NCBI GenBank assembly: GCA_043739185.1
Contig: JAYUEN010000053.1
Coordinates: forward strand, 1 to 59,615
Origin: Bdellovibrionales bacterium
GTDB lineage: Bacteria; Bdellovibrionota; Bdellovibrionia; Bdellovibrionales; JAMPXM01
Direction of reading: 5' to 3'
Length of the DNA: 59,615 bases
The notes under the pieces are model-generated. The model did not search any database, had not been told where the DNA came from, and was given only the letters and a program-made list of their open reading frames with translations. Positions 8,662 through 57,815 of this stretch are shown in pieces. Within the stretch, counting starts at the first letter, position 1, and each line of letters starts with the position of its first letter. The position numbers were made by a program, and so were the translations under genes.

Positions 8662-9006
8662 CTAGTGGCGGACGTCGGAACTTGCGAGAATCGTATTTTC
8701 AACCAATTGAAAATAAGCTCGCACTAGCAATTCATAAGTGTCTGAATCGAGAGTTTCAAGAAAGAGCTTTTTTTCTTGAATGCTGGGTCTCTCTATAAAG
8801 CGGGTGAGGAGGTCCTGTACTTTCTGTACATTGGCCTGATCCTTCAACTTCTTCTCAAGGCTCTTTTGGCTCAAAACTTTGATGAGTTCTTTATTGTCGA
8901 ACATAAAGTGAATGCCTTGAGTGCTCTGCTGTAGAAGGTATTCAATCTGTTCTAAATTTTTCTCATCTTGTTTGATCTGTTTGTCCCTTGGGGGGTTCTC
9001 GAGCAC
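8662..9006 (-). CDS. Hypothetical helical protein
   Basis: GTG at 9006 preceded by AAGGAGG; natural protein composition. Confidence 0.7.
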   Translation of the reverse strand: MLENPPRDKQIKQDEKNLEQIEYLLQQSTQGIHFMFDNKELIKVLSQKSLEKKLKDQANVQKVQDLLTRFIERPSIQEKKLFLETLDSDTYELLVRAYFQLVENTILASSDVRH

Positions 9007-9196
9007 ACACGCCTCCTTGCGTGAAATGTTTGATACACCATAAGGCCAAACTTGGTTAAAGATTTGTCCTTGTTTCAAGTCTGAGGAAAGTATTTGAAAT
9101 GCGCAAGTCATTTTGAGGCAAAATTGACAAGATAAGTCAGCTGCCGTACCATATTAAGAGAGTCGTAAAATGCTCCCTTCAGAAGAGGTGTGAATC

Positions 9197-10048
9197 ATGT
9201 CTAAAACAGCTCTTAAGCGACGAATTTCAAAAAAGGAATTTATGAGCAACCCAATCACGATTGATGAATCTGAAGGTCTTGTATTTGCTAGTGAAGAAGA
9301 ACTTTATGATTATTTTCTTCCGCAAACACAGAAGCTTGAGAAGGATTTTTTTATGTCTCGAAAAGAGACAGATATCCCTGAAAGCGAATTTAAAAATTAC
9401 GAAGATCTTCTCAATCATGTATTGAATGATCCCGACGAGGTCTGGGAAGACAGCACGCGATTTAAAAATTGCAAACTCTTTTGTTATGTCGGTCACTATG
9501 TCGTAGATCAAGAAAATGTGTACTATGTTGCTGTAGCTTATCGCACTGGTGATGTCCCGAGTTTTATTTTTCTTCATTATCCATCAAAGGATCTCGAACT
9601 CATAGATGGATTTCGAAAAGGTAAATTGATTTACGACCGAGTTTTAAAAGAAGTTGAAAATGGCGCGGTTGAAGGTGATGCCCTAAGTGAAGGTGACGAT
9701 TTGGCAGTGGGACTATATCGCGCGATGCTCAAGGTTCGCTCAAATACAGACATTGAAGAAGACAAATTTAAATCTTACGAAAATCTAAGAGAGAGCACGA
9801 TTGAAGAAGCCGATGAAATTTGGCGCAGTACTGATCTCAACGGAAATGTTTTGGTGAGCTTCATCAAAGAATTTGGCGAAGACGCTGAAAAAGATTTGCA
9901 CTATGTTGTAGTGACAATCGAAGACCCCGCTTCAAGCAGTCATGCGCTGCTGTTTTCATTTCCGTCACTTGATATCAATCTTCTTGATCGTTATCGTCAT
10001 GGCGAAAATTTACACGCAGAGGAAATTGTACAAGAAGCCAGCCACTAA
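9197..10048 (+). CDS. Acidic protein with two tandem PBECR/Barnase-RelE-like fold repeats
   Basis: Two homologous halves: TDIPESEFKNYE..DPDEVW..YYVAV..FLHYPSKDLELIDGFRKG and TDIEEDKFKSYE..EADEIW..HYVVV..LFSFPSLDINLLDRYRHG. The fold name is an inference. Confidence 0.6.
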   Translation: MSKTALKRRISKKEFMSNPITIDESEGLVFASEEELYDYFLPQTQKLEKDFFMSRKETDIPESEFKNYEDLLNHVLNDPDEVWEDSTRFKNCKLFCYVGHYVVDQENVYYVAVAYRTGDVPSFIFLHYPSKDLELIDGFRKGKLIYDRVLKEVENGAVEGDALSEGDDLAVGLYRAMLKVRSNTDIEEDKFKSYENLRESTIEEADEIWRSTDLNGNVLVSFIKEFGEDAEKDLHYVVVTIEDPASSSHALLFSFPSLDINLLDRYRHGENLHAEEIVQEASH

Positions 10049-10050
10049 AG

Positions 10051-10149
10051 TCAGTTTCTGGCATTCTAGATTCGGTCAACAGCAGCTGACTGAATGCTGT
10101 ACACCGAAACTGGCAAGCGGTTGACGGCCGCTGCTGCCGTTAAAACTGA
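10051..10149 (+). repeat. Dispersed structured non-coding element, copy A (putative ncRNA motif)
   Basis: Shares blocks GGCATTC, GTCAACAGCAGCTGA, CACCGAAACTGGCAAGC, GTTGAC, CGCTGCTGCCGT and AAAACTG with the reverse complement of 39939-40042. Confidence 0.85.
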
Positions 10150-10231
10150 TTCAAATGGTCCTGTTCACAATCTTGACACCTGCAAATCGCAATAGGTGCC
10201 CATTTTTGCAAATTGAAGCATCCAAATGACC

Positions 10232-10300
10232 TGTCTCAATATGAAACACTCATAATGAATCTATCCGAACTGAGAGCGAAGCTCTGGTCAGTCTTTTGCT
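10232..10300 (+). promoter_or_regulatory. Palindromic operator plus sigma54 promoter of the downstream lipoprotein gene
   Basis: TGTCTCA-ATA-TGAAACA at 10232-10248; TGGTCAGTCTTTTGCT (GG-N10-GC) at 10285-10300. Confidence 0.65.
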
Positions 10301-10336
10301 CTAATAGAAAGTAGGGAATAAAAATGGGGAGGATTT

Positions 10337-11086
10337 ATGGGAAGAAATTCAGACAATACTCAAATCAAATTATCAAAGCTTAGTATCTTTGCAGTAATGC
10401 TTGTAGGATGGCTCGCATCAGGTTGTGGCGCCACTCAGTCGGGTGGTCAGCCTGCAACAAGCCTCGGCTCGATAACGCCTCTAACGCCAATAGCAGCTAA
10501 TTCGCAGAACACTATATGTAATCAAATGTCGACTACGAGCACTCGTTTCAATGCAAGTTTAAGAACGGTGGATGGCAATCCAAATATGATTAGAGTTCGA
10601 ATCACTGGCATGACCAGTCTTTATGATGGGAATCCAAATGCCAATATTCAATTTTTTAGATGGAAGGTCGTAAATGGCGTCAGCAATTTGGATTCATCTC
10701 CTCTGAGCTTTCATATCGAAGGTGCAAGTCACAATGGTGTAAGTGGGCACCAGTACTCTAATACTATGACCGGAATTGCTATGACGGACGTTAAGCAAAT
10801 CGCAAGTGCAAACTTTTTAAATGTGCAAACGGCTGAGCAATTTTTTAACGCAGTCGACATCATAGTTCATGACGTCAGCTTTGATTATTCAGCTCTCAAA
10901 TTTGTTTTGTACAATGGTGGGACGGTGACGGCTTCAAATGACGCCTTAATGCCTCCATTTGCGGTGAATCCTAAAAGCTATGCTTCAACTCATGCGCCAG
11001 TACTCAATGGGCTTCATCCATTTGCGAATCAGTTGAACTTGACCGATGCGCAGTATTTAGCAAACGCTCAAAGCTTTTGCTTTTAA
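10337..11086 (+). CDS. Hypothetical lipoprotein
   Basis: Strong GGGGAGG RBS, LASGC lipobox, C-terminal FCF. Confidence 0.8.
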   Translation: MGRNSDNTQIKLSKLSIFAVMLVGWLASGCGATQSGGQPATSLGSITPLTPIAANSQNTICNQMSTTSTRFNASLRTVDGNPNMIRVRITGMTSLYDGNPNANIQFFRWKVVNGVSNLDSSPLSFHIEGASHNGVSGHQYSNTMTGIAMTDVKQIASANFLNVQTAEQFFNAVDIIVHDVSFDYSALKFVLYNGGTVTASNDALMPPFAVNPKSYASTHAPVLNGLHPFANQLNLTDAQYLANAQSFCF

Positions 11087-11151
11087 AGAACTAGTTGAGA
11101 AACGGCGCATTCGACTTGAAGCTTTGAGTTTAAAGATAAATAATCTTTTGC

Positions 11152-12036
11152 ATGTTTAAAAATCTGGGCTTAGTCATTTTAGTTTTAATTTCATTTTCAT
11201 GTGCTCATAAGACACTGAATATACCTGTCGGCGAAGAAGACCGGTTAACTTTCAATCAATTTACAAAAGTAGAGTTAAAAGAACCCGTATTGTTGCGACT
11301 AAAAGGCATTCAGGGGAGCAGCGAAACGACCAAATTCAATAGTGCGTCTAAGACTGAAGTTTTTGAAGGAAGCTCGCTCACCAATACGATTGAAGAATCA
11401 ATTGAGTTTATGTCAAAGGCAGAAATCACCAAGATTCTTGCAAGTGATGAATTTACTGAAAAAGTAACAACTTTTAAAAAAGACGGGCAAATTGATTTGC
11501 ATGATTTTGCTATGCCTGAAGTAGGCGAAGAACTTGCGATAACTTTTAACTCAATGGGGAAGATTTTAAAGGTAAATAATCTTCCGAGAGAGAGTTTGTA
11601 TTATGTGCCGCCAGTTTCTTTACCCAAAGAGAAAGTGAGTATTGGCGACACCTGGAATATGAGTGCGCATTGGGTTACCGAGCAGGGCGTGCCACTTAGT
11701 TTGAGTTTGCTCAGCATTTTGAAAGGCTTTATAGAATGCGGAAAGAAAGAAATCTGTGCGGATATTGAACTCTCGGGCGATGTGACAATCGATTCAAATA
11801 TGGCGGGAGTCATTTTTCAAAGCATCTGGAAGGGCCGAATTTTTTTCTCGCTTGAGCGCGGAAGTTTGATCTGGTCTCTCGTTGAAAGTCATGAGGCTTG
11901 GAACACCGAAAAAGCTCATCGCGATGTACGCTCTTGTTTAGAGTCCAATTTAGTTGAACCCAACGACTATCATTTCTGGAAAAATGAAAATCATAAATGC
12001 GCAATCCCTAGTTTAGAAAAAGCCGCCCAGGACTAG
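11152..12036 (+). CDS. Hypothetical beta-rich lipoprotein
   Basis: FSC lipobox; LPKEKVSIGDTW motif typical of beta-sheet periplasmic proteins. Confidence 0.75.
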   Translation: MFKNLGLVILVLISFSCAHKTLNIPVGEEDRLTFNQFTKVELKEPVLLRLKGIQGSSETTKFNSASKTEVFEGSSLTNTIEESIEFMSKAEITKILASDEFTEKVTTFKKDGQIDLHDFAMPEVGEELAITFNSMGKILKVNNLPRESLYYVPPVSLPKEKVSIGDTWNMSAHWVTEQGVPLSLSLLSILKGFIECGKKEICADIELSGDVTIDSNMAGVIFQSIWKGRIFFSLERGSLIWSLVESHEAWNTEKAHRDVRSCLESNLVEPNDYHFWKNENHKCAIPSLEKAAQD

Positions 12037-38845: not shown

Positions 38846-39805
38846 TTAGGGCATCTCGATGTTTATGCAGTTTTCGCCCACATCTCCGCCGACACGGTTT
38901 TCATCGCCGTCATGTACCATGAATTGCAATCGATAAGTATGGCCAGTGATTAAATTGAAATTCTTTAAGTTCCAACTCACAACGGCGCCATAACCTGCTT
39001 CACTTGCCGGATTTGTGGGTGCAGGAAATACCGATCCCAAATTCCAAAAATTTGCGGTTGGATCTGAATCAACTTTAATTGAAGAAGAAACAATTGCAGA
39101 GGTTTTATCGACGGTGCGAGTGGCGGACTTCCACGTGCCGCTTACCGAAGTTGGTAGAGATGCACTGCCGCCATATTGCCAATCTCCACCAATGTTTTTG
39201 GGATTGGTTGTGGTATCCGTAATAAAAAGTGCAGGGAACATGGGTCGGCTACACAAATCGGGAGCACCACTGCAAGTTGATCCGTCGACGCCAGCCTGGT
39301 CGCCGGTGAGAGCCGTTGCGCCTACCATGGGACTGGCTTGAGTGCCAGGATTTGCTGGTAAAGCTGAAACAGAATAGGAAGTCGAAACTGTTCCGGATGC
39401 GGTGATAACATTGACTTGGCTAATTCCCAAAATCATTGCCTTTTCGTCTCCGTAATAAACATTCACCGTTGGGCCAGCGGCTGCATAAACATAACTAAAT
39501 GCTGCGAGTACTTTGGTCTCATTAAAGGGAACATTTGTCGCTGGAGTAGAGGTTGAATACGGATACGGGATCGTACAATTTGTCTGCGCGAAATCAGTTG
39601 GAATCGGTGGATTTCCATTGGCAGCGGGCGCAACTGGCGGAATGGGAGCGCCTCCGCCCACAGGGCCAGTAATATTATTTGCGCTGGGGCCGGCAGTGGA
39701 GGCCGCAAAATTCACCTTGTCGCAGTTTTGAAATAATGTGAATACGCCAACTAAAAAAGCTGCGTTCACCAATTTGCGACTAAAGAACCGTGATTCATTT
39801 TTCAA
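38846..39805 (-). CDS. FQNC-lipobox lipoprotein with Cys-containing beta domain
   Basis: LFQNC, Pro-rich linker, C-terminal YRLQFMVHDGD..GGDVGENC; TTG 39805 after GAGGGGGG. Confidence 0.8.
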   Translation of the reverse strand: MKNESRFFSRKLVNAAFLVGVFTLFQNCDKVNFAASTAGPSANNITGPVGGGAPIPPVAPAANGNPPIPTDFAQTNCTIPYPYSTSTPATNVPFNETKVLAAFSYVYAAAGPTVNVYYGDEKAMILGISQVNVITASGTVSTSYSVSALPANPGTQASPMVGATALTGDQAGVDGSTCSGAPDLCSRPMFPALFITDTTTNPKNIGGDWQYGGSASLPTSVSGTWKSATRTVDKTSAIVSSSIKVDSDPTANFWNLGSVFPAPTNPASEAGYGAVVSWNLKNFNLITGHTYRLQFMVHDGDENRVGGDVGENCINIEMP

Positions 39806-39836
39806 GAGGCCCCCCTCTGAGATCAAGTATTAAAGC

Positions 39837-39852: not shown

Positions 39853-39938
39853 GTTTAGGGCGTTCTGGTTTGAGATAATGAACTATACTTCGGAGAAGTG
39901 TCTAAAAATTAGCTAGTTTTAGCACGAAGAATTCAAAG

Positions 39939-40042
39939 CAGTTTTTACGGCAGCAGCGACAGTCAACTGCTTGCCAGTTTCGGTGATCAGCCCTGATTCT
40001 GGATCAGCTGCTGTTGACTGATTTCGGAATGCCTGACGCTGA
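39939..40042 (-). repeat. Dispersed structured non-coding element, copy B (putative ncRNA motif)
   Basis: Reverse complement aligns to 10051-10149 with six identical blocks and a 6-nt longer central hairpin. Confidence 0.85.
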
Positions 40043-40046
40043 AGCC

Positions 40047-40172
40047 TTATGCGGTGATTGTAGTTTGTTGCGTGCCATCGCTGTCTGAATTCAAATCTGT
40101 GGGTTGGCCATCTGACATAAAGATCACAATGTATTTCCAGCCGGCGGGTGAAGGATCACTTTGAATGCTCGT
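40047..40172 (-). pseudogene. Fragment of a vWA-domain gene
   Basis: Minus strand reads TSIQSDPSPAGWKYIVIFMSDGQPTDLNSDSDGTQQTTITA*. IVIFMSDGQPTD is the vWA 'hhhhTDG' motif. There is an in-frame stop shortly upstream and no proper start. Confidence 0.55.
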
Positions 40173-57695: not shown

Positions 57696-57815
57696 AACCA
57701 ATCATGGGGAACATGAGGTTGCTGTTTGCAAATGGTAACTTCAGTCTCTGGGATTACCTCTGACTCTGATTCTGCTGCAGATTGCCGAATGCCTGCGCCT
57801 GTCTTTTGGCAGTTG

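Follow-up and report, generated by a model that had tools for sequence, protein, structure and literature searches.

A dispersed intergenic repeat of a Bdellovibrionales genome: probable ISL3-type MITE relics with a 57-nt core apparently selected in cis

Two short segments lying about 30 kb apart in a 59,615-nt contig (C53, referred to as the window in the rest of the text) of a Bdellovibrionales bacterium resemble each other closely and belong to no annotated feature, which raises the question of what they are. A sequence-only reading of the window had presented them as copies A and B of a possible new RNA motif, either ribozyme- or riboswitch-like or of a mobile, REP-like kind, with a decayed coding remnant as the alternative. 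Both copies are really present at the sites given by that reading, and both are intergenic. Over the compared spans (window positions 10051-10149 on the plus strand for A and 39939-40042 on the minus strand for B), they share about 80% identity across an alignment of roughly 100 nt, with a single 6-nt length difference in mid-alignment, and the likeness ends a few bases beyond these limits. A BLAST search of the whole genome, a 4.85-Mb assembly of 540 contigs (97.65% complete, 3.73% contaminated), returned the A-B match with E=2.6e-19, so that the likeness is far beyond chance.

Copies A and B are not a pair but members of a dispersed family of about 150-167 diverged copies in this genome. With copy A as the BLAST query, we obtained 44 matches genome-wide, and 91 HSPs at a word size of 7. 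Iterated nhmmer rounds on the same genome went from 84 to 149 and then 157 hits. A strict search for both end motifs gave 2 copies and was replaced by a full-length profile of about 210 positions, with which successive nhmmer rounds, seeded with one full-length member, yielded 97, 158, 164 and finally 167 hits spread over many contigs. One of them is a third copy in the window, situated directly 3′ of the stop codon of a minus-strand ORF and between convergent genes (Table 1). The family is almost exclusively intergenic: 144 of 146 copies anchored on the conserved core lie outside ORFs of at least 100 aa, the other 2 lie inside, and 9 partial overlaps with ORFs were counted.

Independent reads agreed with a high copy number. 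Across positions 10044-10217, the summed contig depth of four public DNA runs rose from about 5-10 to about 50-170 (10-15-fold), as expected for a multi-copy repeat. Over positions 9000-11600, the contigs of these four runs break off at the element without any of them bridging it; they thus provide no empty-site evidence either way. Since neither an empty site nor a presence/absence polymorphism was seen in the four runs or in sister species, transposition of the family has never been observed. At least 12 other groups of 3-5 contig ends with identical terminal sequence occur in the assembly, which is therefore broken by several further multi-copy elements. For annotation, the family amounts to some 150 unannotated repeats that fragment the assembly and that, taken singly, mimic a novel RNA motif.

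Table 1. Coordinates of the repeat copies and of associated features. Plain coordinates are positions in the window; other locations are given by contig.
Feature	Location	Strand	Basis
Copy A, 5′-truncated decayed member	10048-10201	+	nhmmer with full-length profile, E=5.4e-26, profile positions 42-209 of ~210
Copy A 5′ arm, then short variable spacer	10060-10102	+	Alignments; spacer changes in 6-nt steps
Copy A conserved 57-nt core, codon-like three-base variation	10103-10159	+	Column statistics of ~146 copies; pN/pS by frame
Copy B, 5′-truncated member without left terminal inverted repeat	39912-40048	-	nhmmer, E=5.2e-34, profile positions 39-186
Copy B conserved 57-nt core	39928-39984	-	Alignment and frame coordinates
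Third copy, weak and partial (5′ arm, start of core)	57740-57801	-	nhmmer, E=1.5e-4, profile positions 46-120
Upstream neighbour of A with PBECR2 nuclease-like domain; outside the element	9197-10048	+	Pfam PF18810, E=4.8e-15
Contigs with IS left end	C188, C196, C342, C387, C417, C452		
Contigs with IS right end	C117, C181, C280, C358, C366, C440		
Y1_Tnp ORFs, among them	C31:9523-10077, C156:2718-3272, C167:2063-2602, C224:41846-42385		
Further Y1_Tnp ORFs	C298:5929-6468, C356:20488-21027, C332:63515-64054		

Full-length members measure about 200-240 nt and contain no transposase gene, the span of all copies taken together ranging from about 60 to 240 nt. They consist, in this order, of a T-rich left repeat, a 5′ arm, a variable spacer, the core, a tail and an A-rich right repeat. 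In the full-length profile, both ends of which are reached by 9 copies, the right terminal repeat is the inverse of the left one. Only 56 of the 167 hits begin before profile position 20, and most copies have no recognisable inverted repeat. Tandem 6-nt units, as many as about 8 in succession (as at C521:5895-5971 and C366:1750-1904), make up the spacer, so that the arm-to-core distances fall on two ladders, 11+6k and 16+6k. The 6-nt length difference between A and B is one step of this ladder.

Five loci in the genome encode an ISL3 transposase domain (PF01610), one of which occupies the first 109 bases of contig C117 and continues a contig-end repeat. The contig-end repeats in question are stretches of identical sequence behind several copies of the element, which look like the left repeat at their start and run to the end of the contig. 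On contig C405, the left end of an insertion sequence (IS) is about 85% like the left repeat of the element over some 40 nt and precedes a 456-aa ORF for a DDE transposase of the ISL3 family (NCBIfam NF033550, 195.1 bits for a cut-off of 180; PF01610, 144 bits), and the right end of the IS resembles the right repeat of the element across about 25 nt. We rebuilt the IS insertions from contig ends, matching ends that break off in the left end of the IS to ends that break off in its right end. In five rebuilt insertions the flanks are identical at 8 of 8 bases, which corresponds to an 8-bp target duplication; a sixth was paired by eye, and the right ends on C38 and C506 have no partner. Target duplications of 8 bp are generally described for the ISL3 family as a whole. 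An 8-bp duplication is reported for an ISL3-family transposon (PMC9782665). Because the inverted repeats of the family match the ends of the ISL3 IS, which itself makes 8-bp duplications, we classify the family as an ISL3-type miniature element (MITE). We consider it probable, at about 0.8, that A and B are worn relics of this MITE and that their 57-nt core is selected for a role in cis.

According to this reading, the ISL3 transposase would have spread the MITE copies in trans, by a cut-and-paste or copy-and-paste reaction generating 8-bp target duplications. Around the full-length MITE copies, a duplication can be made out at C438 (7 of 8 bases matching) and is not recognisable at the other 8 of 9, in a family whose copies are old. 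The interior of the element shows no similarity to the readable part of the IS interior; the element is not a simple internal-deletion derivative of the IS. A search of public genomes with the ISL3 transposase confirmed no relative.

The places where the IS has inserted bear directly on the relationship between the two elements. All 6 occurrences of the left end of the rebuilt IS in the assembly lie in a repeat copy or within 13 nt of one. Three adjoin the right terminal repeat of a copy, with nothing but the 8-bp duplication, or up to 1-2 more bases, in between. A fourth has the equivalent position next to a copy whose tail is decayed, a fifth is found 13 nt past a core and the sixth is inside a core. 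The C405 IS also adjoins a short copy and lies after it. The transposase system thus appears to recognise the repeat ends, and the ISL3 IS seems to target sequences that resemble its own ends. With all six of its insertions in or beside these repeats, the resident IS offers a clean natural case of such targeting.

The same insertions, together with one of another IS that is also in or beside a copy, lend themselves to the opposite view, in which the arm-core unit is an older and independent host repeat that became a target of ISL3 and the inverted repeats are secondary. The large share of copies, A and B included, that have no recognisable inverted repeat fits such a history, as does a core unrelated to the readable IS interior. 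However, where inverted repeats are present, they stand at fixed distances and face inward around the arm-core unit, as the two ends of a single element would, both in this genome and in a sister species, and the IS insertions lie outside the arm-core unit with the 8-bp duplication in between. An independent host repeat is for these reasons unlikely.

Copies A and B are decayed members of the family. Copy A has no left terminal inverted repeat, and its right one is weakly alignable and barely recognisable. Copy A begins right at the stop codon of the upstream gene. The orthologues of this gene in sister species G001-G003 stop at the same codon with no element behind it, which indicates that copy A is species-specific at its locus and that the left repeat it lacks does not lie concealed within the gene. 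Past the orthologous stop codon, the DNA of the sister species cannot be aligned with the copy A locus and differs for other reasons. The B locus gave partial matches only in the sister species. Because A and B have no left inverted repeat, their membership in the family rests on their homology to full-length copies. Loss of the left repeat from both, and decay of the right one in A, would have left them immobile, and they are presumably no longer able to move. Scans for promoters and terminators found no such site inside A or B.

The PBECR2 domain encoded upstream of A is a barnase/EndoU/colicin-like nuclease domain, and the orthologous genes of three sister species are 81-84% identical to this one at the nucleotide level. 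On their downstream side, A and B are each followed by a gene (10337-11086, plus strand, and 38846-39826, minus strand) that begins with a lipoprotein-like signal sequence and has no Pfam match.

In suggesting a mobile, REP-like motif, the sequence-only reading was right in kind, since the family is a repeat of mobile-element origin scattered over the genome. Like REP and REPIN sequences, it is an intergenic palindromic repeat in a genome that carries Y1 transposase genes. Unlike them, it does not flank the Y1 genes (3 of 11 have a copy, on one side), its unit is far longer and its ends are ISL3-like. We found 11 Y1_Tnp (PF01797) matches in the genome, most of them in paralogous ORFs of about 180 aa (Table 1). 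Mobilisation of the family as a REP/REPIN-type repeat, by a RAYT (Y1) tyrosine transposase and not by an ISL3 enzyme, would be in keeping with these genes, and with the element copy found 120-215 nt upstream of three of them. Yet no copy occurs within 2.5 kb of 8 of the 11 Y1 ORFs, no Y1 ORF has copies on its two sides, and the copy density alone leads us to estimate that about 2 of 11 would have a neighbouring copy by chance. Three of 11 is thus close to what copy density predicts, and the RAYT/REPIN mechanism is unsupported. With ends that match those of the ISL3 IS and not a short REP hairpin, the family is most improbably a product of RAYT activity.

Eleven Y1 (IS200/RAYT-type) matches would be unusually many, if they are RAYTs. 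An integron attC-like site was also considered and seems unlikely, as the copies are single and dispersed and do not form cassette arrays; compared by eye, the arm motifs do not fit the attC core-site consensus.

The proposal that A and B encode a hammerhead-like ribozyme or a riboswitch did not hold up. A structured RNA, whether ribozyme, riboswitch or other cis-regulatory fold, derives its appeal from the conserved complementarity of blocks in the 5′ arm to blocks in the core. The blocks exist as described, but what is conserved in them across the family is individual letters and not co-varying pairs. Over 80-146 copies, we tested the helices named by the sequence-only reading and others that could be built, namely the arm-core helix, two shifted versions of it, a local hairpin and a hairpin within the core. 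In none did covariation appear, the fraction of copies that form a given pair being, in every variable column, that expected from independence (e.g. 0.41 vs 0.45, 0.58 vs 0.55 and 0.22 vs 0.23); the largest excess was 0.63 for 0.55 expected. RNAalifold on 21 cores gave -1.54 kcal/mol with 4 pairs and 0 compensatory changes, and when mutual information was computed for all column pairs, the top scores came from neighbouring columns and no long-range Watson-Crick pair emerged. The G/A change between A and B, which had been read as compensatory, is one among many uncorrelated changes. Rfam produced no match at the gathering score over the whole window and none at E≤1 for six loci including A and B.

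Taken one by one, copies are indeed better folders than shuffled sequences (z=-3.92 for A and -2.1 to -3.2 for three others), but B in the sense orientation reaches only -1.06, the opposite strand of A folds as well as the sense strand (z=-3.89), and the minimum free energy folds differ from copy to copy. Folding on both strands, into structures that vary among copies, is what an imperfect DNA palindrome gives. Copies also occur upstream of genes, downstream of genes and between convergent genes, which is a poor fit for a cis-regulatory RNA. The sequence-only reading had itself listed a lack of covariation among the outcomes that would refute its RNA motif, and by that standard the idea of a ribozyme or a riboswitch fails; we regard a structured RNA as scarcely credible. 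The complementary blocks would instead be the imperfect palindrome that is typical of MITE-like elements.

The most distinctive part of the element is its core. Many of the core columns carry 1.7-2.0 bits (140-150 copies), every third one is free, in some cases near 0 bits, and the full-length profile shows the same pattern. The core is far better conserved than its surroundings, being nearly letter-perfect at two of three positions in copies whose identity is otherwise only about 82%. Counted by the Nei-Gojobori method, 65 distinct ungapped 57-nt cores gave a pN/pS of 0.40 in the sense frame pointed out by the sequence-only reading and 0.49 in its antisense partner, the frame with the same wobble positions, compared to 0.98-1.26 in the other four frames. 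By our own sums, changes at two-fold sites of the sense frame are nearly all transitions (transversions, 48 of 228) while four-fold sites vary freely (228 of 428), and this transition bias favours the sense frame over its antisense partner. Between the closest pairs of cores, which have 3-5 differences in 57 nt, the third phase accounts for 56% of the differences and the first for 6%; the pattern is thus more than a legacy of a few old source copies. From these observations, we conclude that the core is under site-specific constraint in individual copies.

This is in part what the coding alternative had anticipated: divergence of the codon type holds throughout the family. The intact ORFs that should accompany it are missing, with 2 of 146 copies inside one, and so are start codons. 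From the preceding stop codon to the core, an ATG, GTG or TTG is present in 31 of 146 copies and missing from 115 in the sense frame, and present in 67 of 146 and missing from 79 in the antisense frame; 12% of cores contain a stop in the sense frame and 17% in the antisense frame.

Tiny protein genes, or a peptide cassette that is still translated in the sense or in the wobble-sharing antisense frame, would account for the low pN/pS values of these two frames, for the contrast between two-fold and four-fold sites, for the closest pairs differing mainly at wobble positions and for spacer lengths that change in steps of 6 nt. The rarity of start codons and the stops within sense-frame cores argue against them. 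Only 26 of 80 copies have their arm and core in a common phase, and several copies have 1-nt length variants right after an invariant hexamer. Within the core, the variable letter of one in-frame codon is the middle one, with the first and third conserved, and two wobble positions never change. Profiles of the peptides from both frames, compared to all open frames of at least 90 codons in the genome, matched only the copies themselves, and in a collection of 5.8 billion protein clusters the open frame of B had no match among proteins longer than it (26 candidates) or of similar length (0 candidates). Conventional translation of the core is therefore unlikely, and a translated cassette, in either frame, is distinctly unlikely as an explanation of the family. 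A simpler rule, a conserved C, a free base and a conserved G, fits many columns of both arm and core, with some of these units out of frame.

Having set translation aside, we infer from sequence conservation that each core copy is selected for a cis-acting role, as the main reading of A and B has it. Gene contexts were assigned to the 119 copies with a called ORF on each side, the 27 that have no such pair of neighbours or lie in an ORF being dropped. The element has the same orientation as both neighbouring genes in 48 copies and the opposite orientation to both in 14; 31 copies lie between divergent genes and 26 between convergent ones. In tandem contexts the imbalance of 48 to 14 is significant by our own arithmetic (p~1e-5, with crude ORF calls), and a role on the strand of the neighbouring genes appears most likely. 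The orientation bias could equally reflect insertion linked to replication. Our best guess is that the core acts as an imperfect arm-core hairpin, or as a putative protein-binding platform in the transcript or in the DNA, and not as a peptide. It is possible, if doubtful, that the core is a selected module read in triplets in some 150 intergenic copies, either through non-canonical translation into a peptide or by a protein or RNA partner that contacts two bases out of three.

Compared to bacterial MITEs mobilised by an IS, the family is alike in being small, dispersed, intergenic and devoid of transposase, with repeats that match a resident IS. It departs from them in that its interior is no deletion remnant of the readable IS, and in that its ends are mostly lost while the 57-nt core is conserved. 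ERIC, Correia, BOX and RUP elements are intergenic imperfect palindromes of 100-250 nt with variable internal insertions and an orientation bias. The present family shares with them an intergenic location, hairpins on both strands, internal insertions and a biased orientation; its sequence and host are different, and an ISL3 partner was identified. A three-base periodicity of variation is not known to be a feature of ERIC, Correia, BOX or RUP.

Closer to the core pattern are the Rickettsia palindromic elements (RPEs), which a review describes as protein-coding palindromes with a peptide-like frame, about half of them inserted in frame inside host genes (PMC10969869). The same review names ERIC and BOX as MITEs that carry ORFs (PMC10969869). 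Like RPEs, our family is a palindromic mobile repeat that keeps a peptide-like reading frame; unlike them, it has only 2 of 146 copies inside an ORF of at least 100 aa. Peptide-framed MITEs are thus already known, and what is unusual here is a frame-like constraint in copies that are nearly all intergenic and have no start codons. If the rhythm of the core reflects selection in place, the family would be a rare mobile repeat that has carried a conserved, possibly triplet-read module to many loci. Should the triplet reading be true, a functional cis-module would have been carried by a MITE to sites all over the genome of a lineage of predatory bacteria, and if the core were translated, it would be an RPE-like coding palindrome living outside genes. 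In a limited search of the literature, including the review cited above, which has no mention of ISL3, we found no description of an ISL3-type MITE with such features; this is weak evidence that none has been described.

Among 122 copies, best pairwise identity has a median of 82%, and only two pairs, those with shared flanks, exceed 95%; the copies of the family are old. To determine its distribution, we scanned 35 genomes of the taxonomic family with a sequence-only covariance model built from 21 cores. The model matched 128 times in this genome, 14 and 12 times in two sister species and once, weakly, in another genus, and it had no match in a third sister species (90% complete) or in the other 30 genomes. 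BLAST with copy A detected the element in 2 of 41 related genomes. In the 35-genome scan, the family is thus almost restricted to one genus, where it occurs in 3 of 4 genomes. Two of the sister-species copies (L054 and L060) are full elements with the same terminal repeats as those described above. In the present genome, locus L028 (C332:4194-4348) holds two cores placed head to head on opposite strands, with tails that overlap by about 25 nt, and the pair forms a long, near-perfect palindrome.
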